A stretch of DNA of 64,000 nucleotides from a virus. Its lineage: Duplodnaviria; Caudoviricetes. The position numbers were made by a program, and so were the translations under genes. Position 1 is the stretch's first letter, and each line of letters opens with the position of its first letter. Shown one piece after another: positions 3,855-63,792 of the stretch. The notes below the pieces were generated by a model. That model had not been told where the DNA came from and made no database searches. It saw only the letters and a list, made by a program, of their open reading frames with translations. The stretch spans positions 627-64,626 of the IMG/VR virus record IMGVR_UViG_3300048996_000137; one strand, written 5' to 3'.

Positions 3855-3855
3855 C

Positions 3856-4180: not shown

Positions 4181-4632
4181 TGGTCGGGCCGCCAGGTGAG
4201 CCGCATCACGCGGCGCGCAGAAAAACTCGGGGGCTCGTTCTTGTTCTCTTCGCGATCGGTCTCGTACGCGTCACCGTAGAACTTGCGCGCGCGCTCGAGC
4301 AGCGCTCCCTTGTCGGGCGCTTTCGAGTACCGCCGGTGCACCTCGAGCTCGGCATGCATGTACACGAGCTCGCGCCACACCAGGGCGAGCTCGGCCTGGT
4401 GGACGTTCGAAAGGCTCGATGCGTGATGGGCGTCCGCGGCCGCGCCCTGCGCCGCGAGCGACGTAGGCGCGATCATCGTCGCGACCGCGGGCCCGTCGAT
4501 GCGCGCAACGATCCACTGCCACGCGAGCGTGATGCCCGTCGCGCTCGCAGTGCCGAGCAACGCCAGCAGGCCAAGCACGACCCGTCCGATCGTCTTTTTG
4601 ACGACTGAGGACGGAACGTGGATGGACTGCAT
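4177..4632 (-). CDS. Membrane protein in lysis module (holin/spanin candidate)
   Basis: N-terminal hydrophobic helix; directly downstream of lysin. Confidence 0.5.
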   Translation of the reverse strand: MQSIHVPSSVVKKTIGRVVLGLLALLGTASATGITLAWQWIVARIDGPAVATMIAPTSLAAQGAAADAHHASSLSNVHQAELALVWRELVYMHAELEVHRRYSKAPDKGALLERARKFYGDAYETDREENKNEPPSFSARRVMRLTWRPDQ

Positions 4633-4641
4633 GTCGCACGA

Positions 4642-5121: not shown

Positions 5122-5690
5122 GCAATCTTGGTGACCTTCGCCACTGCGTCCTCGAGCTGGATCTGATCGCCGTCGGTGGACCCGGTCGCACCGTGCAGCT
5201 GCATTTTGAAGTGACACGCGCCCGCAGACAGCGCGGAGACCGCGATCCGCACCCACAAGTGCAGGATCACCGGCACGACTGCTGCCGGAAGCGTGATGCC
5301 GGTCGAGCTGCCCGTCGAAGCCGTGGAACCGACGCGCGGCGTGCTCGCGCCGAAGTCGTAACCCCAGAAGTCGCCGAGCCATGTCATCGCGCCAGAAAGC
5401 ACGGCCGGTGCGACCACGCAGCGCGCGGTCGTGTGCGACGGGTTGCGAATCGCGCGTCCCGTCAGCTCCAGCAAGTAGATGCCCGTCGATGAGACGGAGA
5501 GATCCGTCAAGCCGGGTATGTCCGCCGGCGTGGGGTACGTTGCGATCGCGGACCCGGACTGCGCTGCCGTGAGTGGTGCCGCGGCCGCCGCCGCCAAAAT
5601 GCTGGCGAGCACACTCTCAGAAACGCCGTACAAGCCGTCGTCATCTTTCTCGAGCGTGTCGTTGAGTCTCGTGCTCAGTGGAATGCCCAT
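5118..5690 (-). CDS. Putative tail-associated structural protein
   Basis: Beta-rich ORF in tail fibre region. Confidence 0.5.
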   Translation of the reverse strand: MGIPLSTRLNDTLEKDDDGLYGVSESVLASILAAAAAAPLTAAQSGSAIATYPTPADIPGLTDLSVSSTGIYLLELTGRAIRNPSHTTARCVVAPAVLSGAMTWLGDFWGYDFGASTPRVGSTASTGSSTGITLPAAVVPVILHLWVRIAVSALSAGACHFKMQLHGATGSTDGDQIQLEDAVAKVTKIA

Positions 5691-28239: not shown

Positions 28240-29109
28240 CTACTTGGTCGTGATCTTGATCACGCCCGGCTTGGTCGAGCCGCGCACGCGACGGTAGCGG
28301 TGCGCCGCCCAGTACGTGTGCATCGCGATCAAGTCGGTGTCCGCGAGCGCGTCGTAGTCGGTGACGACCTTCGGCGGCGCCTGCCACCAGTACGCGAGCG
28401 CGGCTTCTTTCATCAGCAGCATCTCGTACTTCTGCGCGCCGTCGTTGAACGTCTTCATCTTGTCCGACACGACGACCGGGATCCCGTTGAACATCGGGAT
28501 CGGCTCGGCGCGCGTCGGCGTCGTCATCAACTGCTTTCCCGTCGAGTCCTTCAACTTCATCAGGTCGCGATACAGCTTCGAGTGCATCGCGAGCAGACGG
28601 ATCGCGTCCTGCTGATCGCCCCACAGGCCCGTCGCGTCGATGATGACGTCGATGTCGATCTTGCCGCTGCCGATGCCGCTCACATCGAGAGTGAACTCGG
28701 CCGGCACGCCGGTGTTCGCGACTTCGATCAAGGCCTTGTCGACGCGCCGCGTGTTGATCACGCGGAACTGTCGTCCGGCTTCCGCGTACGGATCGCCGAG
28801 CGAAGCCATGCGCGCCCACTCGGTGATCTCGAACGCTTTGCCCGAGTGCCTCACCGTCGCGGTATCCGCGTCCATGCTGATGCTTTCGGGCGTCAGCGCA
28901 TCGCCTTCGTTGACGATGTCCTCCATCTCACCGAGCGTGCCGAAGTAGGGCACCGTGACGGTGTCGCCACCGCGCTTGTCCATCGGCAGCGTGTTGCTCA
29001 TGACGGCAACGCCGCTGCCGACGAGCACGTTTTGTCCCTCGAACTCGCCCTGTACTGCGTCGACGAGGATCTCTGGAATGACGAGGTCACTACGTTTGGT
29101 CAATGCCAT
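28240..29109 (-). CDS. Major capsid protein
   Basis: DL.IPEI, GDTVTVPYF...G, EGDAL, GDPY.EA.RQ, MHSK. Confidence 0.9.
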   Translation of the reverse strand: MALTKRSDLVIPEILVDAVQGEFEGQNVLVGSGVAVMSNTLPMDKRGGDTVTVPYFGTLGEMEDIVNEGDALTPESISMDADTATVRHSGKAFEITEWARMASLGDPYAEAGRQFRVINTRRVDKALIEVANTGVPAEFTLDVSGIGSGKIDIDVIIDATGLWGDQQDAIRLLAMHSKLYRDLMKLKDSTGKQLMTTPTRAEPIPMFNGIPVVVSDKMKTFNDGAQKYEMLLMKEAALAYWWQAPPKVVTDYDALADTDLIAMHTYWAAHRYRRVRGSTKPGVIKITTK

Positions 29110-29165: not shown

Positions 29166-30476
29166 TTAGCGCTGCTCCTGTTGCGCTCGCATCGCGGCGT
29201 ACTGCTCGCGATTGTCGACGTAGAGCTCGTGGCGCTCCTGAGGCTTCAGCTCGCCCCACTTCTTGCCCTTCCACTTCAGCTCGATCTCGGAGTCGTCGTT
29301 GCCGCCGCCGCCGCCATCCGCGGCAACCGTCTTGGGCTGCTTGACGGGTTTGCCGTCGATCGACAGCACGTGCGGCGCGACCTGCAGAAAGGCCTCGAGC
29401 TCGCTGACGGAGCGGCTCTCGTAGTGCTTCTCGAGCGCCGGCGTGAGCTTGCGACCCTTCGGATCGGCCTTGTCGGCGGCGAGCAGCGTCACGCGCTTTT
29501 GCGCGTCGAGCGCAGCTGCATGCGAGCTCGCGTCGGACAGGAGCTTCGGCACCTGCGCCGCGGCTTCGGCCATGCCGCGCAGCGCCCCGAGTACTTCCTC
29601 GTCGTTGTCGCGCTTGGTGATCGCTCGCAGCTCGACCATCAAGCTGGTCGAGCGCTGGTGCTGCTGCTTCATGCGGTCGATCGCGTGAAGCACTGCCGAT
29701 TCGTCTGCGTTTCCGTTCGCGCCGAGCGCGAGCGCAATGGCCGTGAGACTCATGTCGTCTGTCCTTTCGTTGTCGTCGTCGTGCAGCGAGCCGTGGTCGC
29801 CGCGCTCGTCGTCTTCCGCGCCGCTGCGCAACAGAAATGCGCTTCGGCACGCGTGCATCACATCGGCCGGCACGTGCTCGTAGCCGTAGCGACCGAGATC
29901 GAAGTGCAGTCGCACCGACTTCGGCGCCGTCACGTTCTTGCCGCGCACGACTTCATCGACGAGGCCTCGCTCGAGCGCCTGGTCGGGCGTGAGCCACGTC
30001 TCAGCCCGCATCAGCTCGAGCATTTCTTCTTTGGGCTTGCCGCAGCGCTGCGCGTACAGCAGCGCCGCTTCATCGCTGATCGCGCGGAGCCGATTGATCG
30101 ACTTCTGATGCGCGACGTCGTCACCGAACGTGTTGCCGCGCGCGGTGTGCATCATGTAGCTCGAGCCCTGATGCATCCGGACGCGGTCGGCCGCGGTGCA
30201 CAGCACGCTCGCGACGCTCGCGGCGAGGCCTTCGACGTCGATTTCGACTTTCGCCGGATGCGAGGCGAGCATCGAGCGCATCGTCATGCCGTCAAACGCG
30301 TTGCCGCCCGCCGACGACAGCTTGATGTTGATCAGCTCAACGTTCGGGTTTTCCTTCAACCGCTCCGCGAGCCAGGTCGGCCCGATGCCGTCGCGGAAAA
30401 TGAAGTGCTCGCCGATGTCGCCGTACATCTGCAGTTGCAGCTGTGCGCCGCCCGCGAGAAGGAGGGCCTTGTGCAT
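29166..30476 (-). CDS. ClpP-like head maturation protease with scaffold extension
   Basis: SSAGGNAFDG, EGLAASVAS, MMH, ETWLT..AL..GLVDEV; then MSL..IA.ALG scaffold region. Confidence 0.9.
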   Translation of the reverse strand: MHKALLLAGGAQLQLQMYGDIGEHFIFRDGIGPTWLAERLKENPNVELINIKLSSAGGNAFDGMTMRSMLASHPAKVEIDVEGLAASVASVLCTAADRVRMHQGSSYMMHTARGNTFGDDVAHQKSINRLRAISDEAALLYAQRCGKPKEEMLELMRAETWLTPDQALERGLVDEVVRGKNVTAPKSVRLHFDLGRYGYEHVPADVMHACRSAFLLRSGAEDDERGDHGSLHDDDNERTDDMSLTAIALALGANGNADESAVLHAIDRMKQQHQRSTSLMVELRAITKRDNDEEVLGALRGMAEAAAQVPKLLSDASSHAAALDAQKRVTLLAADKADPKGRKLTPALEKHYESRSVSELEAFLQVAPHVLSIDGKPVKQPKTVAADGGGGGNDDSEIELKWKGKKWGELKPQERHELYVDNREQYAAMRAQQEQR

Positions 30477-30501
30477 TGGGGAGCCTTCGGTGAAGTGCCG
30501 C

Positions 30502-31200
30502 TTACGGCTGCAGCGTCTTTTTGCGGCGCGCGCGCTGCTTCTGTTCGTGCTGCGCGAGCGCAGTGGGGTCGTACGAGCTGCGGTCGAGCTCGAGCTCGGC
30601 GCGCACCGGAGGCGCGTAGCCAAAGCCCGGCTGCGGTTGGTGCTTACTCTTGATGTGCGCGCTCACTCCGTGCCGCGAAGCGGTGCTCGCGCTCACGCCG
30701 CGAACCCCCAACCGGCAGCCGTGATGCAGTGGCGGCCACATCAGCAGAAGCCCGGGGTTGTTCGCGCGCACCACCGTGCGATGGAGCGAGCGGCACAGCT
30801 TGGTCGTGCCGCTATCGAGCACGGCCCAGTACATCCGAAAGGGCTTCTGCCCGAGCTCGAGCTGCTCCCAGCGCCCCACGTTGAGCGCGGTCTGCGTCTG
30901 CGTCTGAAACGTCGTCTTGAGCCGGTGGCTATCCACCTGCGCGAAGTCGTCGCGAAGCTTCTTTTTGAGGTGCGCCTGAAAGCCGGCGAAGTCGTCGCCC
31001 TTTTTCACTGCCGCGGCGAGCGCGTTGAGCGCGGCTTGCACGACGTTGAGCTGCGTGACGCCGCTGATCGTGAATGCGGTCAGCTTCGCGCGCCGCTCGA
31101 GCGCGGCGTACTGAGCGTCAGTCACGGCCGTGCGCGAACGAAACCACTTCACCGCCGCGCGTCGCTCGAGCGGGCTCGTCGGGACTTTGCGCCAGGCCAC
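30502..31200 (-). CDS. Phage MuF-like minor head protein (short, no toxin tail)
   Basis: AFTISGV, GRWEQ, YWAVLDS.T...C..L, PPLHHGCR. Confidence 0.9.
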   Translation of the reverse strand: MAWRKVPTSPLERRAAVKWFRSRTAVTDAQYAALERRAKLTAFTISGVTQLNVVQAALNALAAAVKKGDDFAGFQAHLKKKLRDDFAQVDSHRLKTTFQTQTQTALNVGRWEQLELGQKPFRMYWAVLDSGTTKLCRSLHRTVVRANNPGLLLMWPPLHHGCRLGVRGVSASTASRHGVSAHIKSKHQPQPGFGYAPPVRAELELDRSSYDPTALAQHEQKQRARRKKTLQP

Positions 31201-31203
31201 CGA

Positions 31204-31458
31204 TCACTCCAGCGCGTCGTCGTCATCGTCTTCGCGCACGAAGTAGTAGGTGCCGCTGAGAGCTCGATCTACGGCTGCGTAATACGCTGCGCCGTTGGCG
31301 GGCGTCAGCAGCCCCGCGCCCGTGACGATGGTCTTGATGTGCGGGTAGAGATCCAGCGTCGCGGGCGGATCGACGACAACTTGCCCGCCCACGAGCTCGA
31401 ACGTGCACAGCGTCTCGTGTTCGAGGCTGTCCGGATCAACTTGGATGAGGCGTTTCAC
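31204..31458 (-). CDS. Small acidic protein; candidate partner/immunity of the portal-fused kinase
   Basis: GTGA-coupled to portal-kinase stop; TPANG.AY...L.GTY motif. Confidence 0.6.
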   Translation of the reverse strand: MKRLIQVDPDSLEHETLCTFELVGGQVVVDPPATLDLYPHIKTIVTGAGLLTPANGAAYYAAVDRALSGTYYFVREDDDDDALE

Positions 31459-34337
31459 TTGGTCTTCCGCGAAAGCCGCGTGATCTCTTCGAGGTCTTTC
31501 TTCGAGAGCTCGTCTCTGCGAAACCGCTCTTCGGGAATCGCGTTGATCCAGTGGTGAACCGACTCGGCTGCGTCGTGCGCCGCGCTCCAGCGATAGCCAT
31601 CCTGAAACTGGCGCGGCTCGTGCTGCAGCGAACGCACGCGCGCGAGCGTGGATGCGATCTGGTGCTCGGTGATGCCGTGGTCGTGCAGCATCGAGGCCAC
31701 GTGCTCGAGCTTGAGGCTCTGGAGCGCCGAGACGTGCTCGGGCTGAAACTTCACAACTTCCTCGGCGAACGAAGGTGTTTGCTCGATCGCAAACAGGAAC
31801 CGCGCCGGCCTCTCCGGAAATGTCAGGCCATGGTCGATCGCGACTGGGCGAAACGGATGCGCGTCGGGACCGTCCTCATGCCACAACGTGTTTTGCGGGT
31901 TGCGATCGTCGTTGCCGGCGATGAGGTCGAGCATCAGCATCCGCTTCGAGGCCGGATGCGCGCCGAGCTTGGCGAGCTCGGCGTCCCTGGAATCACGCGG
32001 ATCTGCCGACGACCGCTGCTCAGCTCGCCCGATCGAATCGAAGTACACATTCATGCTCGACTTCGCGTTGGGCTCCCACGCCTGCAGCGAGCCGTCCTTG
32101 CCGTCGTGCTCGCGGTGCACGGTGTGCGGCACCATCTTGTCGCCGGCCAACATCTGATCGAGCTTGTGAAACGCCTGTTCGCGACGACCCATCGAGCCAT
32201 TCGCAAGACCCGCGCGGTACTCCTCCATCTGCGGGATCGGCGGGTTGGCCTTCCAGATCGCGTGCTGCTCGTGGCCGTTTTTGTCGCGCAGCGTGAGGCG
32301 CTTCGAACCGAAGTTGCCCGTGTTCACATCGGTGGTGCTGACAACGTTGAGCTTCTCAGCCGTCATCCACTCGGGAGCCGCAGAAGCACCGCCGGGGGCT
32401 TTCTTGTCGGCAGCAGTCTTGCGCGATTTGCCGCTACGAGCTGGTTTGTCGCCATGCTCGGTCCCGCTTGCCGCTTTCTTCGTCTTCGTCGTCCTGGCGG
32501 CCGCTGGCTTCGCCGCGCGCGCCTTCACCTTTGCGATCCGCTCACGTGATGCTTTGCCGCGCTTGGCTGCAGCGCCGCCCGGACGCGATGCGAACCGCCC
32601 ACCCTTGCCGTGGTTCGGGTTGAACAGCTCGGGCTCGAGCGACAGCCCAGGCTCGAGCTCTTCGTCGTCTTCGTCCTCTTCGTCGTCCTCGTCGACCGCG
32701 TGACGGCCCGCGAGGTTCGCCATCACGATGCCCGCTTCCAGAATCTCAGCGAGCGTGTCGGGATCCTGCTCGTCCGCGAAGGCCTTCAAGATCGCCGCGC
32801 GAGCACTCACGTAGTCCGTTGCGCCATCGACGGCCGCAACCAAGCGATCGACGAGCGGCTGCAGCGCCTGCGCACCCTGCGCGACCGAAGCGTCCGCGAC
32901 GTCGTCCACGTAGAGCTGACCGTTTACGAAGCCGGTGCTCGACTCTTCTTCTTCGTCGTCGTCGGCCGCGAGCCTGGCGCCCGGCTTGCGGGTCGGCTTG
33001 GTGCTACTGGGGAGTTTTTTTTTCAGGCCGCCACCGCCGCCGCCACCAGCTGCGCCCGGTGGAACGGGTGGAGGATTGGCCGCGTCCTTCTCGGCCTGGC
33101 TCATCTCAGTGAGCTTGACGCCGTACTGCTCTTCGATCTCCGCGGCGGTGAGCTTGAAGCCCGCTTGCTGGATCGCGCCGAGCGCGGTGCCGAGTGTCGC
33201 GAGCGTTTCGACCTTCGCGCCTTTGTCCTCGGGCGGGTCGGTGTTGTAGCGAGGGAACGGCGCGAGGCCGCGATCGCCGAAGTTGTACTCAGCCCACCAC
33301 GGCAAGCTCTGCTCTTGCAGAATCCGTCCGAGCTTCTTCGACATGTACCTGAACACGCGGAGCTCTTTGCGCTCATGCGTGTTCGCGGCGGCGTAGCTGC
33401 CGCCCTCCACTTCGGTCGTGAGGTTTTGCCCGACGAGCGCAAGCGTGAAGCCCATGTTCGCGGCTTCGATCTGCGCCTTGTAAATCGACTCGGTGCCGGC
33501 GGTCAGCTCGACGAGCTCGAGCGTGAACCCCTGCGGCAAACTGATGACCGCGTCCTTCGCGAGGTTGAAGATCTCGTTCGCGAGCGCGCGCCGGTCTTCG
33601 GGCAGCGCGCCTTCATTTGAGTTGAGGACGAGCTTCGAAGCTTTCTCCGAATGCACGCCCCAGTCGCTCATCGCGTAGCGCTTGAGCATCCACCACGGCG
33701 AGCAGCCTCGCCATTTGCCGTTCGACCACGGCCGGTAGTCACCCTTGAGCGTGCCGATGATCCATTCGCCGTCGCCGGCGACGATGGGCGTGTCGCGACC
33801 GCTCTCGTCGCGGAACAGCCACGTGTTGTGCTCCCAGTCCCAGCGAAAGTGTTTCGGGTGGTACGTCTTGAAGACGGGCAAGACGCGTCCGCCAGACTTC
33901 GAGGGAAGCCACTGCACGTGCCGCCCGAACGCCAGGCCCACGATCTCGAGCCAATCGAGAAAGCTCGCGAGCTCGTCTTCGCCGTACGCGAGCGGCCAGT
34001 CTTCCTCGAGCTCGGCGGCTTTCTCCGCATCGCCGAGTGTCGAGCGCGCGTCCTTCTCGAACGACAGATCACAGCCGAGCACGCCGCCGCTGACGTCATC
34101 GAGCAGCTTGTTGATCCGATCGTCGGCGATCATCTGATCGCCGAGATCACCGAGCCGAATCAGATCGCCGCTGTCCGCAGTCGCAGTGAGCGTTTGCAGC
34201 GAGCGCGGCGTCCAGTGGAGATAGCTCCGAATGGACGGCTGACTGAGAACCTGCCCCTTGCCACCCTGAATGAGCTGCAGGTGGCCGCGCCGGTTTTTCT
34301 CCGGCGTGCCCGCAGTGGGTGGTCTACGGATGGCCAT
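31455..34337 (-). CDS. Portal protein (DUF935/Mu gp29-like) fused to C-terminal PI3/4K- or HipA-like kinase domain
   Basis: Portal motifs LVGQNLTTE..GGSYA...HE and C-terminal ANLAGR; then AIWK, RREQAFHKLD, VPHTV, GSLQAW, LDLIAGNDDR..N, AIDHGLTF. Confidence 0.85.
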   Translation of the reverse strand: MAIRRPPTAGTPEKNRRGHLQLIQGGKGQVLSQPSIRSYLHWTPRSLQTLTATADSGDLIRLGDLGDQMIADDRINKLLDDVSGGVLGCDLSFEKDARSTLGDAEKAAELEEDWPLAYGEDELASFLDWLEIVGLAFGRHVQWLPSKSGGRVLPVFKTYHPKHFRWDWEHNTWLFRDESGRDTPIVAGDGEWIIGTLKGDYRPWSNGKWRGCSPWWMLKRYAMSDWGVHSEKASKLVLNSNEGALPEDRRALANEIFNLAKDAVISLPQGFTLELVELTAGTESIYKAQIEAANMGFTLALVGQNLTTEVEGGSYAAANTHERKELRVFRYMSKKLGRILQEQSLPWWAEYNFGDRGLAPFPRYNTDPPEDKGAKVETLATLGTALGAIQQAGFKLTAAEIEEQYGVKLTEMSQAEKDAANPPPVPPGAAGGGGGGGLKKKLPSSTKPTRKPGARLAADDDEEEESSTGFVNGQLYVDDVADASVAQGAQALQPLVDRLVAAVDGATDYVSARAAILKAFADEQDPDTLAEILEAGIVMANLAGRHAVDEDDEEDEDDEELEPGLSLEPELFNPNHGKGGRFASRPGGAAAKRGKASRERIAKVKARAAKPAAARTTKTKKAASGTEHGDKPARSGKSRKTAADKKAPGGASAAPEWMTAEKLNVVSTTDVNTGNFGSKRLTLRDKNGHEQHAIWKANPPIPQMEEYRAGLANGSMGRREQAFHKLDQMLAGDKMVPHTVHREHDGKDGSLQAWEPNAKSSMNVYFDSIGRAEQRSSADPRDSRDAELAKLGAHPASKRMLMLDLIAGNDDRNPQNTLWHEDGPDAHPFRPVAIDHGLTFPERPARFLFAIEQTPSFAEEVVKFQPEHVSALQSLKLEHVASMLHDHGITEHQIASTLARVRSLQHEPRQFQDGYRWSAAHDAAESVHHWINAIPEERFRRDELSKKDLEEITRLSRKTK

Positions 34338-34364
34338 GTTGGTAGAAGGGCGGGGGAGGCAGAC

Positions 34365-34748
34365 GTGACGAAAATCACTGACGAAGAAGCCATCGCCGCG
34401 GGTGCAGAGCCGGAGGACACCGACTCGCTGCACGCCGCGCGGCTGCAAGAAGAGAAAGCGCAGCTGCTCGAGCGCGACCTGGTCACCGCCCGCATCGACG
34501 TTCAAAACCGGACACAGTGTCTGCAGCGTGCGGTGCGGGTGCTGCAGACCTTCAAGAGCAATGCCGAGCTCGCGCAAGCGAAAGCGGCCGATGTGGAAAA
34601 GATGCTGAGCGAGCGCGCAATCGACGCCGGCGACGAATACACCGAGGGCACGAGCTGGAAAGAGCTTGGGCTAAAGCACGCTGCCGCCGCGGAAGCGTGG
34701 ACCAAGGCGGCGCAGCTGCTGCGCGAAGCGCTACAGGCTTACGTATGA
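34365..34748 (+). CDS. Helical hypothetical protein, antisense to late operon
   Basis: GGAGG RBS before GTG; fills terminase-portal gap. Confidence 0.6.
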   Translation: MTKITDEEAIAAGAEPEDTDSLHAARLQEEKAQLLERDLVTARIDVQNRTQCLQRAVRVLQTFKSNAELAQAKAADVEKMLSERAIDAGDEYTEGTSWKELGLKHAAAAEAWTKAAQLLREALQAYV

Positions 34749-34764: not shown

Positions 34765-34956
34765 ATGAACGTGCAACTCGAACTGTTCCCGTTACCGGCG
34801 ACGACCTGTCGCTGCGGGCGCGCCCTGACGGCTTTCATCAACTGCTACCGCGAGCGTTGCGATCACTGCATCTTGCGCGAGGGTCCGCCGCCGGCCGGCG
34901 AAGATCCGGAGGCCAAGCGCGTCGCCCTCAAGCGTTGGCTGAACGCTCAGGTGTAG
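34765..34956 (+). CDS. Small Cys-rich protein
   Basis: QLELF, CRCG, CDHC. Confidence 0.5.
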   Translation: MNVQLELFPLPATTCRCGRALTAFINCYRERCDHCILREGPPPAGEDPEAKRVALKRWLNAQV

Positions 34957-36425
34957 CGACCGCCGCCGCCGAGCACTCCGTAATCGTCGAGGTACAACAG
35001 CGCCGCATCGACACCGCTGACAATCGCATCCGTTTGATCGGACACGTCCTGCTCTGCGCCGGTGAAGCTCGTCAGCTCATCGACGAACACCGGCTGCCAC
35101 GGGTGCGCCTCGATGTCTTCGGGCACAAGAATGCGGCCGAGGTTCCAGAGCTCGCTCGAGGTGAGCGAGCGCGTCAGCTTGTCGCGACCCTTCGGGTCCA
35201 TCACGACGAGCGGGATGCCCTTTTCGCGAATGAACGAAGCGCAGCCCGCTTCAGTGCCCGACGCGTACCAGTAGAACTTCGCGCGACGTGTCGAAAACGC
35301 TGCCTTGAGCGTCAGCGTGAAGCTCGGCGCCTCGACCTGCTTGCGCTGCACATCCACGACGTAGAACAGATAATCTTCTTTGCGCTGCTTCTCGCCGCGT
35401 TTGGTCTTCGCCGGCGGCACAACCCACAGCGTCACGAGCACGCTCCAGTCCGCGCGCGTTTTCGCGGTGTACGCGAGGTCTACGCCGTACACGACGCGGA
35501 AGCCCTCGGTGGGCAACTCGCGATAGTACGTCGGCGTCTTGAAGAGCGTTCCGCCGCGAGGCTGCGGCTGGCCCTGATACAGACTCGCGAAGTTCCACTG
35601 GTTGGCGAGCTGCCGCTCGAGCAGCATCGACAGTGGCCGGTGCGCTTCCCACAGCGCTTCGCCAACCGCCCGCTCGTCGCCGGCGGGCATGTCCTCGCCG
35701 TCGCAAATCGCTTTGAGGTTGATGTACTCGAACCCCTGCTCGCGCACGAGGTAGCCGGACAGATCGTCCGGATGCCAGCGCGTCGCCATCACGATCACGC
35801 TCGAGCCCGGATGAAGCCGCGACTCGACGGTGCCGTGGTACCAGTCCTGCTGGTACGCGCGCGTCGCTTGAGATTCCGCTGCGCCGCGATCCTTGAGCGG
35901 ATCGTCGACCATCATCACGCCGTCGATCGGCTCTCCGGTGAGCCCGCCGCCGACCGAGGTCCACACCACTTGGCCGAGCTCTTCGTTGAGCCACAGGCCA
36001 CCGTTCGCGACGGTCAGCGGCACGCGCGCGCGCTGCGCCGTTACGAGCGCTTTGCGCGAGACGCGTCGCGCGCGATCGTCGTTGTACGTCGCGTACGCGA
36101 ATCGCAGCGCGGGCCACTTGCGCAGCCAGAAGCAAATCGCGTGGACAACCGTTTCGGTCTTGCCGTGCTGCGGCGGAGCCGCGAACACGATCCGCAAGTT
36201 CGCGCCCGGCGCCCGCTCGAGCACATCGACGTAGGGCTTGAGATGGAGCGGCGGTTCCCAGCGCGGTGTGATCCGCGGGATCCACTCCATCAGCGCGTCA
36301 GTGAACTGAGTTGGGTCCTGACTTAGGTCCGCGAGCAGCAGGCGCTGGCGGACTTTCTCTTCGAGCGAGGTATGCCGAGCAGAGTGCGCGGAAAACTTCT
36401 GGCTCAAGTAGCCCTTGGGCAACAT
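34947..36425 (-). CDS. terL: Terminase large subunit (start uncertain, perhaps nearer 36290)
   Basis: APPQHGKT Walker A, GG.LTG, VDDP.K, TRWHPDDL.G, LYQGQP, VDLA, FT...DQ.DA. Confidence 0.95.
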   Translation of the reverse strand: MLPKGYLSQKFSAHSARHTSLEEKVRQRLLLADLSQDPTQFTDALMEWIPRITPRWEPPLHLKPYVDVLERAPGANLRIVFAAPPQHGKTETVVHAICFWLRKWPALRFAYATYNDDRARRVSRKALVTAQRARVPLTVANGGLWLNEELGQVVWTSVGGGLTGEPIDGVMMVDDPLKDRGAAESQATRAYQQDWYHGTVESRLHPGSSVIVMATRWHPDDLSGYLVREQGFEYINLKAICDGEDMPAGDERAVGEALWEAHRPLSMLLERQLANQWNFASLYQGQPQPRGGTLFKTPTYYRELPTEGFRVVYGVDLAYTAKTRADWSVLVTLWVVPPAKTKRGEKQRKEDYLFYVVDVQRKQVEAPSFTLTLKAAFSTRRAKFYWYASGTEAGCASFIREKGIPLVVMDPKGRDKLTRSLTSSELWNLGRILVPEDIEAHPWQPVFVDELTSFTGAEQDVSDQTDAIVSGVDAALLYLDDYGVLGGGGRYT

Positions 36426-36900
36426 CGAGGAACTCGTTGAGCTGGTCGTCGATCGTGTGAACGACGCGTGGCGACCAGTGCTGCGGGTTGCGGAGCGCCA
36501 GGCGTTGGAACGCGACCATCGCGGCCGATTCCTTCACCTTCTGCGCGGCGCCCATCTCGCCGGCGAGCTGCAACATCTCATCGGTTGTGATCGCGTAGCG
36601 GTGCCCGCAGCGCTCGCACGCGACCGGCTTGTGGTCGAGGTTCGCCGCGCGCGCGGTCGTGATCACGTCGTTGACTTCGCCCTCGTCGGACGCCTTCTGC
36701 GCCTCTTCGAGAAAGAGCGTGTACTTGTTGCGTTTGCCCGCGGCCGCGGCCGCACGCCACTCGTGCAGCCGCTGGCGGCGGATGCCGCACGCAGACAGCG
36801 CGGTGGAAAGCGTATTGCCGCCTCGGACCAGCAGAAGCACGCGCTCTCGAACTTCTTCGAGGCGCTTGGGCGCTTCAGACTTCTTCTTCGGCGGCAGCAC
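36298..36900 (-). CDS. Terminase small subunit-like protein (HTH + CxxC)
   Basis: N-terminal HTH (GNT..A...CGI....L.EW); L.LR.PQ.W; upstream of terL. Confidence 0.7.
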   Translation of the reverse strand: MLPPKKKSEAPKRLEEVRERVLLLVRGGNTLSTALSACGIRRQRLHEWRAAAAAGKRNKYTLFLEEAQKASDEGEVNDVITTARAANLDHKPVACERCGHRYAITTDEMLQLAGEMGAAQKVKESAAMVAFQRLALRNPQHWSPRVVHTIDDQLNEFLDVAQGLLEPEVFRALCSAYLARRESPPAPAARGPKSGPNSVH

Positions 36901-37990
36901 GCGCTACGTCCGTCAGCGGTTCTTCGTCTGCTTTTTCTTCGTCTTCTTGGCCGACTTCTTCGCTGCCTTCGCCGGTGCGCTCGGCGCTTTCTGTGCCGTT
37001 CTCTTCGTCATGCTCGTCTCCAACAACGGGGTGCTCTTCGTCCTGTTCGAGCTCGGGTAGTTCGCGGTCGACGATCGGGATCGCCACGAGCGCATCGCGC
37101 GCCATCGCGGCCTCGCGCTCAGTCATCTGCGTGATCTCACGGGCGGCGGCTTCGCGCGACTGCTCCGCGATGCGGGTCTGCTCGGCGCGCTGCTGCTGGT
37201 AGAGCGGCTCGAGCAGCGCATGCAGGCGCTTGCCGTCCTGGAATGTGTTGATCTCGAGGCCGAGCGTTGTCATGAACTTCTCGCTGTCCTCGACGTCCTT
37301 GAACACCACCACGATGTAGAAGTGCTCGCGATCGCGGCCCGCGTTCAGGTTCGCAGTCACCGCGTCGATCGCACCGCTCACATCGCGCTGCGCCTGCGCG
37401 AGCGCTTGCAGCTCCACGCCATGCTCGAGCGCAAAGGGGCTCTCCCCCAGCACGTGCATGATGTCCGCCATGTCGAAGCCGGTGGCTTCGAGGCGCAAAC
37501 CCTCGGTCCGCAGCGCCGCATCGAGCTTTTCGAGATCGAACAGCCCGTGCGTCTCGGGGTTGTTCAGCAGGATGTTCGCCTCGACCTCTTCGGCGAACGT
37601 GAGATCGACCTCCGCAACCTGCAGCGCGTACGCGGGCTTGCCGCCCGCGAGCTTGTCGAGCAGAGCGAGGCGCTGATGGCCGCCGACGAGCGTGCCACTG
37701 CGCCCGTTCCATACGAGCGGCTGGAGCAAGCCCAGCTTCTCGAGCCCGCCGCGCAGCTTCTTACGAGACTGGTCGCTGATCACGCGCGGGTTGTATTCGG
37801 CGTTCTTGATGTCCGCGCGCCAGATCGTGCGAGCTCGGTACTTCTGAAGCGGATGCACGTGCGCCAGCAGGTCGGCGCCGACGTCGCGTTCGGCTCCCCC
37901 TCCCACTGCAGCCATTCTCGGTGCATCCCCTGCTACCGCAGCACTTAGCGGGGAGACCGGGTCGTCGGTGGGCTCAGATGCCGACGCCAT
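36875..37990 (-). CDS. ParB/Srx-like domain protein
   Basis: AEYNPRVIS, GLLQPLVWN..SG.LVGGHQRL, E..ANI.LNN. Confidence 0.9.
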   Translation of the reverse strand: MASASEPTDDPVSPLSAAVAGDAPRMAAVGGGAERDVGADLLAHVHPLQKYRARTIWRADIKNAEYNPRVISDQSRKKLRGGLEKLGLLQPLVWNGRSGTLVGGHQRLALLDKLAGGKPAYALQVAEVDLTFAEEVEANILLNNPETHGLFDLEKLDAALRTEGLRLEATGFDMADIMHVLGESPFALEHGVELQALAQAQRDVSGAIDAVTANLNAGRDREHFYIVVVFKDVEDSEKFMTTLGLEINTFQDGKRLHALLEPLYQQQRAEQTRIAEQSREAAAREITQMTEREAAMARDALVAIPIVDRELPELEQDEEHPVVGDEHDEENGTESAERTGEGSEEVGQEDEEKADEEPLTDVARAAAEEEV

Positions 37991-38645
37991 AAAACTCTCG
38001 TCGCTTCACGATCGCGTGCACGAAGGGAAACACCGCGCGCAGCTTCGCGTAGTCGTTCGGAAACTTGTCGTGCAGCCAAAGCACATCGGGCGTCGCAAGC
38101 CCGATGCCCGTCATCGCTCCGCCGCTCGACTCGGGCAGCGGGATCTTGTGCACCGCCAAGTAGCCGAGCACGTCGGCTTTGCCCCAGCCGACGAGCGGAT
38201 GCATCACGTCGGTGTAGTGAGCGGTGTTAGCGAGGTTGCGCTTGCGCCAGAGCGAATCGCCGCGGCGCGCGCCCGTCGCGATCATCTTGATGCCCGTGCG
38301 ATCGATCATCAGGTTGTAGATGTCGCGCAGCTTCACCTCGGGCAGGTCTTCGAGCTTCCAGCTCGGGAACATGTAGAAGCCGTACTTGAGCGAGCGCGCC
38401 ACCGTCCAGTGCGGCACCTGATGGATCGTGACGCCGTAGCGACTGCGCGCGAGCTCGAGCCGCCGCTCGATCACCTCGAGCCCCGGGATGAAGTACATGA
38501 AGAACGCTTCGACCCGCGCGAACGTGCGCACGCACATGTCGAGGACGCACAGCGAATCCTTGCCCGCGCTGAACGACACGAGGCACGCGTCGCTGCGCTC
38601 CTTGGCCTTGTTCAGGATCCCGAACGTTTCCTGCAGCGGGTCCAT
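37974..38645 (-). CDS. PAPS-reductase-like (PP-loop/adenine nucleotide alpha hydrolase) protein
   Basis: SFSAGKDSL, TGARRGDSL.R, PL..W...DV..Y. Confidence 0.9.
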   Translation of the reverse strand: MDPLQETFGILNKAKERSDACLVSFSAGKDSLCVLDMCVRTFARVEAFFMYFIPGLEVIERRLELARSRYGVTIHQVPHWTVARSLKYGFYMFPSWKLEDLPEVKLRDIYNLMIDRTGIKMIATGARRGDSLWRKRNLANTAHYTDVMHPLVGWGKADVLGYLAVHKIPLPESSGGAMTGIGLATPDVLWLHDKFPNDYAKLRAVFPFVHAIVKRREFYGVGI

Positions 38646-52741: not shown

Positions 52742-54001
52742 ATGGGTTATCAGGACAAGGGTCGCAGCGCCCGGACGGCTGCGGAGCGGGAGCGGGACCC
52801 GCAGCACGGGGAGGACTTCAGAACGAATCCCGACCCGCAGCCCTCCGCTGCGCTCGCGCAAGTGACCGGCAGCTTTTCGGACGCGCGCGTTGCAAACGAG
52901 CGCCTAGCGTTCGCGAACGCGAACTTCCATCTCGTCTCGCCCTCGAGCAACTGCGGCACGCTGCAAGTCGGCTGCGAGCTCGCGCTCTCGGCCGTGATGA
53001 TCGACATCAAGGAGGAGACCTACGACGTGGGCCTCGGCAAGCGGGCGCTGCACAAGGCTCCGCTCGAGAAGATCGCGGCTGCGATTGGCCTGTCGTGGAT
53101 TCGCAACGGCTGCCATCGGCTCGATGACGGCTCAGACCCGCACTACGCGCACTTCTGCGTTGCGGGCGCCTACAAGTCGTTCGACGGCCAGATGCTCGTC
53201 GTCACGGGCGAAAAGGAAATGGACCTGCGCGAAGGCAGCGTCCGCGTGCTCGAGATCAACCGCCGAGCGGATCTCTACAACAAGAAAAACCGTCGCAGAG
53301 AGGACTTCAAGCAGCGCTACCCGGACGACCAAATCCGCATGGAACGGATGAACATCCTGTCGCACGCCGAGACCAAGGCGAAGCTGCGCGCGATCCGCTC
53401 GCTTGGCCTGCGCGCAGCGTACAAGCCGGAGGCTCTTGCGAAACCGTTCGTGTGCGCGCGCGTGATGTTCACGGGCCGCACCGACGATCCCGAGCTCGCG
53501 AAGCTGTTCGCGGGCGCGATCGCGAGCTCGTACCTCAACTCCCAAGTTGTCGGGTACGGCTCGCAGCTTCCGGCACTGCCCGCCGCAGCGCCCTCAGGCA
53601 ACGACAACCGCGATCGCGAGCCACCCGTCACGGTGAACGCCGAAGTGATCGAGCGCCACGCGCCTCCGAAGGTCGGCGAGCGTGTGTCGCCGACCGAACG
53701 CGAGGACGACGAGCTCGACCCGGACGACGACGGTGACGACTACGGGAGTGGGCCGCGCAGCGACCCACCGCCGCCACCAGCAGCAGCCGCAAGGCGCGCG
53801 CGGCCGCGGCAACAGCCGGAGCACCTCATGCCCGCCGGTCCGGAACGCGACATGCCGCTGTCGAAGGCCTCGAACGCGCAGTTGCAGTTCTGGAGTAACC
53901 GCCTGCGCGATGACCTCGACGCGGGCAACAGCCGCGACCCCGAAGCCGACGAAGACCTGTTCGAGGCGATGCTCGACGAGCTCAAGGTCAAGGACCGGTG
54001 A
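52742..54001 (+). CDS. Putative recombination/strand-annealing protein
   Basis: AETKAKLRAIRSLGLR..Y...L.KPFV; acidic disordered tail; precedes SbcD/SbcC. Confidence 0.55.
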   Translation: MGYQDKGRSARTAAERERDPQHGEDFRTNPDPQPSAALAQVTGSFSDARVANERLAFANANFHLVSPSSNCGTLQVGCELALSAVMIDIKEETYDVGLGKRALHKAPLEKIAAAIGLSWIRNGCHRLDDGSDPHYAHFCVAGAYKSFDGQMLVVTGEKEMDLREGSVRVLEINRRADLYNKKNRRREDFKQRYPDDQIRMERMNILSHAETKAKLRAIRSLGLRAAYKPEALAKPFVCARVMFTGRTDDPELAKLFAGAIASSYLNSQVVGYGSQLPALPAAAPSGNDNRDREPPVTVNAEVIERHAPPKVGERVSPTEREDDELDPDDDGDDYGSGPRSDPPPPPAAAARRARPRQQPEHLMPAGPERDMPLSKASNAQLQFWSNRLRDDLDAGNSRDPEADEDLFEAMLDELKVKDR

Positions 54002-55218
54002 AGTTCCTCGGCCTGGGTGACCTGCACTGGCTCGAGCGTTCGCGCTTGGGCGAGTGCAGGCGCATCCACGACTACATCCTCGAGCTCGTGCGCGCACACC
54101 GCCCCGATGGCGTCTTGTGCGGAGGTGACGTCTACGACGGGGCTTCGACTCCGTACGAGCGGTCGCTGGTCGCGCAGTTCTGGCAGGCCGTCGCGGAGGT
54201 CTGCCCGGTCATCATCGCGAAGGGCAACCACGACCGCCTGCTCGACTGCGCGCTGCTCGCGCGCCTCAAGTCGAAACACCCGATCATGGTCCAGGAAGCC
54301 GCGGGCATCCATCGGATCGGGGACGCGCTGATCGCAGTCGTCGCGTGGCCGGAGCGCCAGTCGATCCTCAGCTGGTCGCGCGCGCACAAGCTCGAGCCGG
54401 ACGCGCTCGAGCAGACCGTGCTGCAAAACATCCTGCGAGGCTTGGGCGCCGAGCTCGCGAAGCACAACGGCCCGAAGCTCGCGCTCGGCCACTTCATGGT
54501 GTCGGGCGCGTCTGTGAGCACGGGCCAGCCGCTGCTCGGTCAACCGATGACGGTGTCGCTCGCGGACCTGTCGCTCTTGCAAGCGCCCGTCGTGCTGATG
54601 AGTCACATCCACAAGCCGCAGACGTTCGAGTTTGGCGATCAGCGGTTTTTGTACATGGGTTCGCCGTACCGCACGAGCTACGGAGAGACCGAGGACAAGA
54701 GCGTCACCCTCGTCGAGTTTGATGACGACGACGACATCACTCCAGGCAGAGTCCTCCTTGGTGGTTTGCGCCCGGGTGCTGCACCCAGCTGCGCGCGCCT
54801 GATCCTGCCGTGCGCGCACATGTACCTGATCGATGCGGAGTGGGAGCACGACGTCTTAGCCGACGGATACGCGCTGCGGTCGGAGGACCGATGGCTGTCG
54901 ACCCTTTCAACATTCCCTGGCGACGTGAGCAACGCCGAGATTCGCTTGCGCTACACCGTCGACCCCGATCGACGTGAAGCCGCGGCCGCCGTGGCCGCAG
55001 CCTTGGAGCAGAAGTGGTACGAGCGCGGGGCCGCGGACGTGAAGCTCGACCCGTGCGTGCGTACGAGCGTGCGCGCGCGAGCGCCCGAAGTCGCGCAAGC
55101 GACGACGCTACCGGACAAGCTGAGCGCGCTCTGGAACGCGCGCAACGCAATGCCCGACGACGCGCGAAAAGAACGCCTTTTTGAGCTGGCTTCTGAGCTC
55201 GAACGCAGTACGGAGTGA
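53998..55218 (+). CDS. SbcD/Mre11-like metallophosphoesterase nuclease
   Basis: GDLH, GGDVYD, GNHD, GHF, SHIHKPQ, YMGSP. Confidence 0.92.
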   Translation: MKFLGLGDLHWLERSRLGECRRIHDYILELVRAHRPDGVLCGGDVYDGASTPYERSLVAQFWQAVAEVCPVIIAKGNHDRLLDCALLARLKSKHPIMVQEAAGIHRIGDALIAVVAWPERQSILSWSRAHKLEPDALEQTVLQNILRGLGAELAKHNGPKLALGHFMVSGASVSTGQPLLGQPMTVSLADLSLLQAPVVLMSHIHKPQTFEFGDQRFLYMGSPYRTSYGETEDKSVTLVEFDDDDDITPGRVLLGGLRPGAAPSCARLILPCAHMYLIDAEWEHDVLADGYALRSEDRWLSTLSTFPGDVSNAEIRLRYTVDPDRREAAAAVAAALEQKWYERGAADVKLDPCVRTSVRARAPEVAQATTLPDKLSALWNARNAMPDDARKERLFELASELERSTE

Positions 55219-55219
55219 C

Positions 55220-57640: not shown

Positions 57641-57666
57641 CGGACCTCTCCGACTAGGGTGACGAA

Positions 57667-62079: not shown

Positions 62080-62216
62080 CCACATCTACCAACTTGGCAA
62101 GAACCCGGAAGGCCGGTAAAACGTTCTGGCAGAAGTCAAAAAACTCGCGGTGACGCTCGTCGGGTATTGGCAAAGCGCCTCTGCTGGTTTACCAACCTCT
62201 ACCTAGTTGGCAATCG

Positions 62217-62426
62217 ATGGACCTCGATAAAGCTGCGTTGCTCAAGAAGCTGCGGAAGATGGAAGAGACCGCCTCCAAGCAGCAACGCGACATCAACGAG
62301 CTCATCGTCCAACTCGACGATCCGAAGACCAAGGCCGAGCTCCGCAAGCATTTGCGGGATACGTGCAAGGCGCGGCCGGAAGATCTCGAGCGGGAAGCCA
62401 AACGCATACGCGAGAAAGGTTGGTAA
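62217..62426 (+). CDS. Small helical protein upstream of integrase
   Basis: 69 aa ORF ending 4 nt before integrase ATG. Confidence 0.55.
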   Translation: MDLDKAALLKKLRKMEETASKQQRDINELIVQLDDPKTKAELRKHLRDTCKARPEDLEREAKRIREKGW

Positions 62427-62430
62427 CCGA

Positions 62431-63792
62431 ATGGGTCGTAAACTTGAGGGATCGGTGTTGGAGTACCGGGGCCGCCACAAGGCGAGCGTCGGCGAGAAGT
62501 ACTTAGGCATTTTCAATACAGCTGCGGACGGCTGGCGCGCAGTCGACGCGTATCTCATCAACAAGCGCGCGCGTGAAGCCGAAGCGGGCCTGACGACGCT
62601 GCGGCTCTGGGGCGAGGTGTTCTTCGAGGAGCGCGAGCTCGCCGGCGTCGTGCGCAACACCGACAAAGAACGCAGCGTGTGGAACCGGCACGTCATCGGG
62701 AGCGAGAAGTCGCCCGGGGCGGTCTTCATCGATTGGCCGATGACGAAGATCCAGCCGATTCTGTGCAAGCAGTTTCTCGAAGGGCTGCTCCGGAAAAAAG
62801 TCACGAACGCGCACGTCACCAAGGACGGCGAGATCGTCTACAAGAAAAACAAACGCACGCTCAGCCGCAAGGTCGTCACCAACGTGCGCACGCTGCTCAA
62901 AGCCTGCTTCGGGCAGGCCGTCCTCAACAAACAACGCACGCGCCTGGCCGCCAACCCGATCACCGAGGACGTGGTCGTGCCGGAGATCGCCCGCGTCGTC
63001 GAAAACGAAGAGCTGATCAATCACCTCGAGCTCGAGGAGATCACCAAGCTCTTCGCAATCTTGCCGGACGCGCGTCGCAAGGCGTACTTCGGCATCGCGA
63101 TCTACGCGGGGCTACGCGATGGCGAGATCATCGGGCTGCGCTGGCGCGACATCTTGCTCGATGCGAAGCGGCCGACGATCGAAGTGCGTCGCAGCTACGA
63201 CGGTGCGACCAAAACGAAGAACAGCCGTCGCAACGTTCCGATCCTGAACGAGCTGCGGCCGTACTTGCGCGCGTGGCGGACCGAGCTGCTCACCGGAACG
63301 ACCGAGGAGACGCGACGCGGAGCGGTGGTGCCGGTGAAGTTCGGAACCCGCGACGTGCAGCTCGACTCGGTGGTGTTCCCCGCGCCCGGTGGCGGCTGCT
63401 ACCACGACGGCTACGACTGCGACTGGCGTCACCGCTCGCAGCGCATCAGCGCGACCGAGGTGAAGGTGCGGCCGGGCTGGCGCGCGCGCGCCGGCATCCG
63501 CGACAGCGTGACGTTCCACGACCTGCGACACACCTGCGCTGCGCATCTCGTGATGGGCAGCTGGGGCGTGAAGCTCGACATGTACGAGCTGTCGAAATGG
63601 CTCGGCCACTCGGACATCCAAGTGACCCAGCGCTACGCCGATCTGAGCCCCGACTTCTTGCACGAGAAGGTGGCTCGAACGAACGAGGCTGCGCGCAAAC
63701 TTCGCGACCAAGAAGTCGCGGAGCGTGTCGACGAAAAAGTCGCCGATGCGGCGTCGAAATCGGGTCGCAAAAGCCGCCCCGATTCCGACTGA
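62431..63792 (+). CDS. int: Tyrosine integrase
   Basis: YAGLRDGE..GL.W.D, TK, FHDLRHT, LGHS, TQRYA. Confidence 0.95.
   Translation: MGRKLEGSVLEYRGRHKASVGEKYLGIFNTAADGWRAVDAYLINKRAREAEAGLTTLRLWGEVFFEERELAGVVRNTDKERSVWNRHVIGSEKSPGAVFIDWPMTKIQPILCKQFLEGLLRKKVTNAHVTKDGEIVYKKNKRTLSRKVVTNVRTLLKACFGQAVLNKQRTRLAANPITEDVVVPEIARVVENEELINHLELEEITKLFAILPDARRKAYFGIAIYAGLRDGEIIGLRWRDILLDAKRPTIEVRRSYDGATKTKNSRRNVPILNELRPYLRAWRTELLTGTTEETRRGAVVPVKFGTRDVQLDSVVFPAPGGGCYHDGYDCDWRHRSQRISATEVKVRPGWRARAGIRDSVTFHDLRHTCAAHLVMGSWGVKLDMYELSKWLGHSDIQVTQRYADLSPDFLHEKVARTNEAARKLRDQEVAERVDEKVADAASKSGRKSRPDSD

Follow-up and report, generated by a model that had tools for sequence, protein, structure and literature searches.

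A Mu-type phage portal protein that continues into a type II PI4-kinase-like domain, with a small coupled partner gene

The locus

A gene that joins a phage portal protein to a kinase-like domain lies on the minus strand of the IMG/VR record IMGVR_UViG_3300048996_000137 (Duplodnaviria; Caudoviricetes). We analysed positions 627 to 64,626 of this record, a stretch of 64,000 nucleotides that we call the window and to which coordinates refer unless another locus is named. The product of the gene, 960 amino acids (aa) long, begins as a portal of the Mu type and ends in a domain whose predicted fold is nearest to that of type II phosphatidylinositol 4-kinases (PI4KII). A linker made of several modules separates the two. 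Directly behind the gene, and in the same direction, stands a small open reading frame (ORF) for an acidic protein of 84 aa, here called the partner, which is predicted to bind the active site of the kinase. The elements of the locus are the following:

31455..34337, minus strand: portal-kinase fusion gene, 960 aa
32703..34337, minus strand: Mu-type portal core (Portal_Mu, phrog_113), residues 1-545, ending in ..GIVMANLAGR
33015..33023, minus strand: run of nine A (A9), read as three Lys codons (KKK), residues 439-441, in a Gly/Lys loop of the portal
32625..32702, minus strand: acidic linker, residues 546-571, D/E at 15 of 26 positions (recognized by composition; cargo-bearing relatives have an equivalent)
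32592..32624, minus strand: FNPNHGKGGRF motif, residues 572-582
32373..32591, minus strand: basic Lys/Ala-rich spacer, residues 583-655, net charge +17 (recognized by composition)
31458..32372, minus strand: type-II-PI4K-like kinase cassette, residues 656-960 (305 aa)
31204..31458, minus strand: gene of the 84-aa acidic partner, GTG start; candidate inhibitor or immunity protein

One uninterrupted gene

Counted from its first TTG, the frame is open over 31455..34577 on the minus strand; with the ATG at 34337 as its start, translation proceeds through 960 aa without a stop. This ATG is backed by the starts of related proteins: P0154, a portal relative described below, begins with MARKPP..GGKG, the protein considered here with MAIRRPP..GGKG. 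Its portal half matches Pfam PF06074 (Portal_Mu, DUF935) over residues 65-407, with 141.2 bits for a cut-off of 23.9 (E 7e-41), and the portal family phrog_113 over residues 149-569. The gene also occupies the typical place of a portal gene, between the large terminase on one side and the MuF, protease and capsid genes on the other.

A preliminary description of this DNA had stated that the portal reaches its expected end and then continues. The statement is accurate, because ordinary portal relatives end 5-70 residues past ..LAGR (MANLAGR, residues 539-545 here). The other motifs quoted at the time were all found where they were said to be in the fusion protein: FNPNHGKGGRF at residues 572-582, AIWK at 693-696, RREQAF at 718-723, GSLQAW at 749-754, DLIAGNDDRNPQN at 804-816 and IDHG at 834-837. 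The G+C content of codon positions (third highest, second lowest) follows a single frame from about residue 1 to residue 930, dips only in the low-complexity linkers, and switches frame exactly at the start of the 84-aa ORF. A second assembly, an 18.8-kb Logan contig with a word depth of about 92, matches 31150-34400 with 0 differences and 0 gaps; as it probably derives from the same soil sample, it stands for another assembler, not for another sample. The soil metagenome that is the probable source is the sole sequencing run found to contain the sequence, with no RNA run listed. With a stop-free frame of 960 aa, one coding frame throughout and an identical second assembly, the portal ORF does run into a C-terminal domain, and the gene fusion is confirmed.

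Predicted fold and catalytic residues of the C-terminal domain

Modelling makes the C-terminal domain a kinase of the PI3/PI4 type, nearest to the type II PI4-kinases. An AlphaFold2 model, built with an alignment of 55 homologues, reached a pLDDT of 92.6 and a pTM of 0.92. Foldseek placed human PI4KIIalpha first (4hnd, E 8e-9), and so did VIA-align (4hnd/4pla), with a Z score of 19.7 and a root-mean-square deviation of 3.7 over 251 residues; the families that came next were Fam20 (13.5), CtkA (12.9), HipT (10.3) and HipA (10.2 and 9.7). A profile of the family, made from 56 sequences, also retrieved PI4KIIalpha among the sequences of the PDB (E 6e-16), the family motifs VWKP, LLD..NDDRH.GN and AIDNGL.FP aligning with the enzyme's own. 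Less informed searches of the same PDB sequences were blind to the resemblance: phmmer with the domain alone gave chance-level rows (E 0.12 and 1.3), and a profile of five sequences had no match. The partial match to the NCBIfam model TIGR03843 lies far below the cut-off of that model. The kinase fold that the preliminary description had suspected at the end of the portal is therefore recovered by both structure and profile. Of the two folds it had offered for comparison, PI3/4K and HipA, the first is supported in its type II PI4K form, while HipA and HipT fall well below, at a Z score of about 10.

The likeness to the type II PI4-kinases (human PI4KIIalpha and PI4KIIbeta; 4hnd, 4pla, 4wtv) is the best that we have by structure and by profile, and includes alignment of the K, LD..N.DR..N and AIDNGL.FP elements. 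The phage protein differs from them by its low identity (19%), by being borne by a phage, and by having none of the eukaryotic insertions. All the columns that are invariant in the 56 sequences are filled by the expected residue (K696, E720, P737, D804, D811, R812, N816, D835 and R900), and the hallmarks of a kinase can be named among them: the ATP-binding Lys K696, the catalytic loop D811-R812..N816 and the metal-binding D835 of I-D-x-G. Because the fold matches that of PI4KII and the invariant residues are retained, the domain looks catalytically active. As to its substrate, a protein, a lipid or a small molecule are all possible, the modelled fold itself being of the lipid-kinase type. To our knowledge, most bacteria lack phosphatidylinositol; the related kinase folds Fam20, CtkA and HipA phosphorylate proteins.

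Where else the kinase is found

An exhaustive HMMER search of 1.84 billion representative proteins with the kinase domain brought up 177 homologues at E<=1e-3, 55 of them at E<=1e-10. In the best 80 of these 177, PI3_PI4_kinase was recognized in 56 proteins (E<=1e-3) and Phage_Mu_F in 26, followed by ADPrib_exo_Tox in two and PT-HINT and InPase in one each; HipA_2 matched 3/80 and HipA_C 1/80, and none of the 80 had a portal family. Likewise, phmmer with the portal half of the fusion found no match among the 150 kinase homologues listed. What carries the kinase elsewhere is, then, often a MuF protein, of which it forms the C-terminal domain. Homology extends from a conserved P-x-WMT (P-EWMT) to the last residues, with 34-40% identity. 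The cassette is thus the same as that of proteins resembling the MuF polymorphic toxins, as the 26 cases in the best 80 homologues demonstrate.

Scanning IMG/VR with an alignment of the kinase gave 30 viral loci. Ten of their kinase ORFs were scanned for domains. Five were MuF proteins, and in one of these five MuF and kinase are separated by a Zeta-toxin domain; one ORF coded for a VG15 protein, and none for a portal. At four loci that we checked, the gene directly upstream of the kinase carrier codes for a portal that Pfam places in a different family, PF04860 or PF06381. Sequence comparison thus shows the kinase to be a mobile cargo, carried C-terminally by head-interior proteins in phage lineages unrelated to one another. 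The fusion of a portal with this kinase is, as far as these comparisons reach, unique among the data searched.

Individual proteins illustrate the variety of these contexts. In the 947-aa head protein of L021:2066-4906, which has a partner gene behind it, a Zeta-toxin domain (E 4e-21) accompanies MuF and kinase. Upstream of the closest MuF-kinase gene, the portal at L003:883-3828 is 982 aa long and includes a LAGLIDADG domain (E 5e-8) that is probably due to an intein or a homing-endonuclease insertion. P0017 begins like a Flp/Fap pilin, continues with a PT-HINT pretoxin domain and ends in the kinase, with no phage head domain; P0009 is likewise devoid of a phage head domain and has but a faint Flp/Fap match (E 0.0096). 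The make-up of P0017, at least, suggests that the cassette also serves in a secreted bacterial polymorphic toxin.

Several searches came back empty. With the kinase domain, tblastn had no match in 50,697 GenBank phage records, and a word-indexed protein search of limited sensitivity found no fused form of 528-1680 aa at E<=0.001. Scans of viral contigs with single sequences yielded one distant portal locus and no kinase locus, where alignment-based scans succeeded. PADLOC had no match for the kinase or for MuF.

The partner protein

The GTG start of the partner overlaps the stop codon of the portal-kinase gene as GTGA, which bears out the translational coupling proposed in the preliminary description. 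The window has a single copy of the gene. Its product belongs to no family of Pfam, PHROGs, NCBIfam or PADLOC and had no usable match in the ESM Atlas; a word-indexed profile search gave ten unnamed relatives of 81-105 aa.

The gene follows the kinase whatever the carrier. Contig ends truncate the kinase ORF at two of the 30 viral loci, which leaves 28 that can be evaluated. A hidden Markov model of the partner finds a homologue beside the kinase gene in 25 of these: at 24 loci it comes next downstream, on the same strand, and at one it is convergent (L008:5894-6157, right behind the kinase gene on the opposite strand). The remaining three, the most distant of the set, show an unrelated ORF of 66 aa in its place. 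Many viral pairs share the four-base overlap seen in this phage, and so does the kinase-partner pair of a metagenome-assembled genome (MAG) of the Sandaracinaceae. By comparison, no partner homologue was present in 61 loci with related portals, nor in 18 genomic loci with distant kinases. Pairwise identities of kinases and partners go together (r 0.76, a value reached in 0 of 2000 Mantel permutations), as linked genes are expected to do anyway.

When kinase and partner were folded together, the interface score ipSAE was 0.87, 0.85 and 0.89 in the three runs, the best of three controls reaching 0.00. The partner had a pLDDT of 86-87 in the complex (91 when modelled alone), and the runs shared at least 90% of their contacts. 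These involve positions 20-31, K47, Q103, 106-111, 161-167 and 185-186 in the numbering of the kinase domain, and 64-75 in the partner. In the model this segment of the partner, a conserved G-[ST]-aromatic strand, lies against the first beta-hairpin, K696, the hinge and the catalytic loop with D835. At its central contact position, 16 of 18 sequences have Ser or Thr and the other two Ala or Met. The partner is therefore predicted to bind the active site of the kinase, and it probably keeps the enzyme switched off.

No structural relative of the partner emerged from Foldseek at E<=0.001. The best VIA rows included HipS chains (7vkb_B, Z 3.4; 7ab3_B, Z 3.2) and two HipA N-subdomains (Z 3.0), all of them values in the noise range. 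At L022, a partner-related domain is found N-terminally on the kinase ORF (E 5e-4) and on the ORF that precedes it (E 7e-7), at 2144-3670 and 3693-5372, in addition to a free copy downstream. This coexistence of fused and free copies recalls the Hip kinases, which are either fused (HipA) or split (HipS plus HipT).

Related portals and their tether

The portal half has its own relatives. A search restricted to proteins of 528-1680 aa collected 45 of them, 36-72% identical, of which 39 are 528-621 aa long. The other six, of 712-989 aa, carry cargoes different from the kinase:

P0154: DRAT-like ADP-ribosyltransferase (ART)
P0189: DRAT-like ART, 40% identical to that of P0154 over 133 residues
P0164: GNAT acetyltransferase
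P0197: InPase
P0155: unnamed domain with an HExxH string, noticed by eye
P0156: small unnamed domain

Five of the six have a common layout: portal, acidic stretch, a motif of the form aromatic-..-GG[RKQ][FW], a basic Lys/Ala/Pro spacer, and cargo. The FNPNHGKGGRF motif of the fusion aligns with YNHNHGADGKF, QPRVP..GG[RKQ][FW] and LGRF in five cargo-bearing portal relatives. The 73-residue spacer that follows contains 21 Lys/Arg and 21 Ala; its first 15 residues or so are common to P0154 and divergence sets in beyond. The two proteins share DPEL[FY]N.NHG..G[RK]FA and GGAAAKRG[KR]A.RER, and then split into different cargoes. Other C-terminal domains are thus borne by six of 45 related portals, five of which use a similar linker. 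In IMG/VR, long forms were met at two of 61 related portal loci, one being a portal-InPase (L066) and the other a portal-MuF. Recombined C-terminal domains on a conserved carrier and tether are, in terms of sequence architecture, the signature of polymorphic toxin systems.

Among 150 kinase homologues, interdomain motifs of this kind were matched nine times, for 0.62 expected by shuffling (at most four in 200 shuffles), and the GG[RK][FW]-type motif may be a mark for processing or docking. Motifs of the form QPR..GG[RK][FW] or RD..G[RK][FW] recur between the domains of large phage head proteins: we noticed them in P0001 (residues 572-582), P0123, P0139, P0140, P0155, P0156, P0164 and P0189. 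P0140, a protein of 2111 aa, has four copies, the last one 35 residues ahead of its kinase.

The portal core might also be produced alone. The A9 run is the longest A/T homopolymer in the window, where only five runs of seven or more exist. A -1 shift at this place meets a stop after three codons, which leaves a core portal of about 445 aa, and slippage there could yield a mixture of short subunits and subunits with cargo. We discarded the idea of a frameshift immediately ahead of the cargo, since residues 520-660 contain no canonical X XXY YYZ slippery heptamer. As observations apart, natural relatives of about that size exist (L033, 459 aa, with the protease gene directly after it), and P0154 is without the portal crown segment.

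The phage and the neighbouring genes

The IMG/VR record has 64,626 bases with direct terminal repeats and is rated complete, so that the window omits bases 1-626 and nothing else; its G+C content is 65%. The head module is on the minus strand, in the order large terminase, portal-kinase, 84-aa ORF, MuF, ClpP-type protease-scaffold and major capsid protein. The genes around the fusion and its partner, together with the integrase, are:

34947..36425, minus strand: terminase large subunit (phrog_38, E 8e-57), upstream of the portal
30502..31200, minus strand: short MuF head protein, 232 aa, without C-terminal cargo (Phage_Mu_F, residues 59-163, E 1e-10; phrog_220, E 7e-34)
29166..30623, minus strand: ClpP-type head maturation protease with a scaffold-like C-terminus (CLP_protease, E 4e-19; weak Mu-like_Pro; phrog_94, phrog_2976)
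28240..29109, minus strand: major capsid protein
62167..63792: tyrosine integrase (phrog_1, E 2e-39)

The adjoining MuF is thus short and has no toxin tail, as had been noted at the outset: its sole match in 232 aa is Phage_Mu_F. Genes for a tail sheath and a tape measure are present in the window as well; with the integrase, this gene content identifies a temperate, contractile-tailed phage. Its host cannot be named, since the leads are all too weak: the closest portals of isolates are those of Meiothermus phages (32%) and of Myxococcus phage Mx4 (29%), terminase matches are spread across phyla, and the closest genomic kinase-partner pair is that of the Sandaracinaceae MAG. A myxobacterial host is hinted at, weakly.

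Two further groups of genes caught our attention. Two genes stand directly upstream of the terminase genes, at 36875-38645 on the minus strand. The product of one, 371 aa long, is a ParB-like nuclease or methyltransferase-associated protein, and that of the other, of 223 aa, is PAPS-reductase-like, a pairing that occurs in DNA-modification modules. At 53998-59529 on the plus strand, SbcD-like and SbcC-like genes precede a gene whose product, 620 aa long, resembles a large-terminase PHROG in its first 220 residues (E 1e-22); the true terminase lies a long way off.

A possible mechanism

On balance, and with moderate confidence, we favour the view that the fusion and its partner are a portal-borne version of the phage polymorphic effector and inhibitor/immunity pairs, with an active kinase that would be delivered to the next cell. 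The C-terminus of the portal, inside the capsid, would have acquired a mobile cassette made of a tether (acidic stretch, GG[RK]F motif, basic Lys/Ala spacer), a kinase and a coupled partner gene. Upon late expression, the G-[ST]-aromatic strand of the partner would lie against the catalytic Lys and Asp and hold the kinase off in the producing cell; we propose this silencing because the co-fold prediction is strong and the gene linkage conserved. Portal C-termini face the interior of the capsid. To judge from this architecture, the portal dodecamer would nucleate the prohead with the kinase tails inside, and portal symmetry alone would put the upper bound at 12 kinase copies per virion. The ClpP-type head protease might then cut the tail within the linker, as may happen in Mu gp29, a portal of the same family whose last 124 residues are missing from the virion structure, a loss ascribed to protease I in the available portion of that report (PMC11915804). 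The tail of gp29, by contrast, has no enzyme domain, and the accessible portion of the paper on JBD30 (PMC11445458) holds nothing on portal processing. The freed kinase would exit with the DNA and act early in the next cell, away from its inhibitor, perhaps in the takeover of the host or against its defences as the preliminary description proposed. Finally, because the phage has an integrase and the logic of MuF toxins would extend to it, a lysogen expressing the partner might be immune to the kinase of related phages. Cleavage, packaging and injection of the kinase are suggested here by analogy with these systems.

A number of points weigh against this view. The match of the domain to Pfam PF00454 (PI3_PI4_kinase) is borderline: taken alone it scores 27.0 bits, within the whole protein 24.8, and the cut-off is 27.1. 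In the D-R-H element the His found in 90% of the family is replaced by Asn813, the sole departure from the family pattern; as PI4KIIalpha has Gly at this very position, the change is not disqualifying. The 30 viral loci include many near-duplicates (L005/6/7, L011/12, L014/15, L021/28, L026/27, L030-32) and thus amount to some 18 independent cases. The mark used for ipSAE is reached by 58 of 80 solved complexes and by two of 110 mismatched pairs, a calibration that applies only roughly here because custom alignments were used. A position in the active site and a Ser/Thr contact residue fit a substrate as well as an inhibitor. There are also mechanical demands: twelve tails of 415 residues must find room beside the DNA at the portal, a folded kinase of 35 kDa must unfold to traverse the tail, and no cleavage site can be named in the fusion protein.

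Alternative explanations

The kinase might be put to use without ever being injected, an explanation that we regard as unlikely. It would act in the producing cell or in the assembling head, on the scaffold, the capsid, the portal or a host factor; the partner would time or localize its activity, and fusion to a portal or to MuF would merely bring the enzyme to the prohead. The kinase is indeed nearly always found on head-interior assembly proteins and within the morphogenesis module, and the T7 portal has been reported, in the available text, to act on host RelA/SpoT inside the infected cell (PMC13483052). Assembly work fits poorly, however, with the same kinase at the end of the PT-HINT protein P0017, or with multi-effector head proteins in which it stands together with Zeta-toxin, ART and InPase domains. 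Nor does it fit the exchange of ART, GNAT and InPase tails among related portals on a similar linker, which is the pattern of exchangeable conflict cargo, and a dedicated partner, predicted to sit in the active site, suits a dangerous enzyme better than a housekeeping one.

About as improbable, in our opinion, is that the 84-aa protein is no inhibitor at all but a substrate of the kinase, an activator, or an adaptor packaged with it. The contact residue, Ser or Thr in 16 of 18 sequences, lies in the model against the catalytic Lys and Asp, and L022 has the related domain fused N-terminally to the kinase ORF and to the ORF before it. The two family members with Ala or Met at that place suit a pseudosubstrate, though, and the modelled partner covers the region of the Gly-rich loop, the hinge, the catalytic loop and the DxG Asp, that is, the entire nucleotide site. 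As to gene order, polymorphic toxin-immunity pairs likewise have the toxin first and a small coupled ORF behind it (Jamet et al., 2017, PMC5576092, in the text available).

That the domain is an inactive relic, a structural plug or a decoration of the portal crown is very unlikely. It would account for the loss of the D-R-H His and for a fusion seen once in the data searched, but not for the upkeep of all the residues that are invariant in the family, nor for an inhibitor-like partner gene that is intact and coupled, and the nearest solved enzyme itself does without that His. Least probable is an artefactual fusion, whether from an overlooked stop, an erroneous frameshift or a chimera of a portal gene with a separate kinase gene. 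A metagenome assembly without an isolate, and with no second portal-kinase fusion found, may invite the thought, but the coding signal keeps one frame throughout, and another assembler reproduces the 3.25 kb exactly at a word depth of about 92x. The same portal-linker-motif-spacer-cargo layout is shown on other contigs by five independent relatives, and the record itself is of a complete genome, with terminal repeats.

Relation to known systems

Returning to the view that the fusion is a portal-borne effector with its inhibitor, the nearest precedent is that of the MuF polymorphic toxins of temperate phages (Jamet et al., 2017, PMC5576092, as far as the main text goes). There too, the phage is temperate, a head-interior protein encoded beside the portal ends in a variable toxin domain, and a small gene of the immunity type follows. 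The difference is in the carrier, which here is Portal_Mu, the MuF domain being on a separate and bare protein of 232 aa. The word 'kinase' is absent from the main text of that article (PMC5576092), whose supplementary tables may list such domains.

Phage effectors fused to MuF or to portals (PBECR, 2H, InPase), and presumed to be packaged and injected, have been described by Iyer et al. (2017, PMC5512222, in the portion available), with an anchor domain and a conflict-type enzyme in one polypeptide and in a context of virion genes, much as here; InPase is also the cargo of the portal relatives P0197 and L066 recovered in this analysis. The idea that the portal itself is the carrier, put forward in the preliminary description, therefore stands as an architecture but not as a novel principle. 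The kinase in the available portion of the same work (PMC5512222) is of another sort, a truncated Ser/Thr/Tyr type without the C-terminal subdomain, in prophages of Verrucomicrobia and Bacteroidetes, whereas the present one has a complete fold, modelled as type-II-PI4K-like, and its own partner. A clade-specific linker module with swappable cargo was not found in that portion of the text (PMC5512222). In the 2012 survey of polymorphic toxins (PMC3482391, available portion), the only kinase mentioned is of the lantibiotic-synthetase type.

For the partner, the nearest working analogy – not a family assignment – is HipS. In HipBST, this protein of about 100 aa neutralizes the HipT kinase by contacting its Gly-rich loop and wedging a residue into the active site (PMC10627512, available portion). 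HipBST and HipBA resemble the present pair in associating a kinase with a small protein that contacts the active site (by prediction only in our case), and HipT and HipA match the fold at a Z score near 10. They differ in that no HipB is found among the neighbours, which are portal and MuF, that the kinase gene comes first, and that the kinase is closer to PI4KII than to HipA.

Full-text searches of the literature gave no paper on this kinase when MuF, kinase and polymorphic toxin were combined, though supplements may hold more; nothing for PI4-kinase with prophage, toxin and immunity protein; and, for ejected effectors fused to portals, no paper on this kinase or on the series of portal cargoes. 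The principle of a portal-effector fusion is thus already in print, while the literature searched contains neither the kinase cargo nor the family of its partner, nor a portal tether that can be swapped.

What the fusion may mean

A bolder picture can be drawn, which we find rather doubtful. Virion kinase toxins of the type-II-PI4K fold, with HipS-like pseudosubstrate partners, would be widespread and would move between head-interior carriers as a two-gene cassette, and in one clade of Mu-type portals the C-terminus, with its acidic stretch, motif and spacer, would have become a general cargo dock. Kinase, ADP-ribosyltransferase, acetyltransferase or peptidase-like cargo would come to this dock by recombination; the GG[RK][FW] motif would mark the cut of the head protease, and the basic spacer, binding DNA, would ride out on it. 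Slippage at A9 would mix core and cargo-bearing portals, and in this way set the dose of kinase per virion.

In any case, the kinase is a new class of cargo, a complete PI4KII-like enzyme as modelled, with 177 homologues and no named family beyond a borderline Pfam match. The protein that almost always accompanies it represents a new family of small proteins, confidently predicted to plug the active site, and this makes the two a toxin-inhibitor pair ready for biochemistry. Related portals with different cargoes on a similar tether form a natural series, material for the study of how portal-tethered proteins are released and how they exit, which also raises the use of portals for loading chosen proteins into phage heads. 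If the view that we favour is true, the kinase would be a weapon shipped inside the virus particle.

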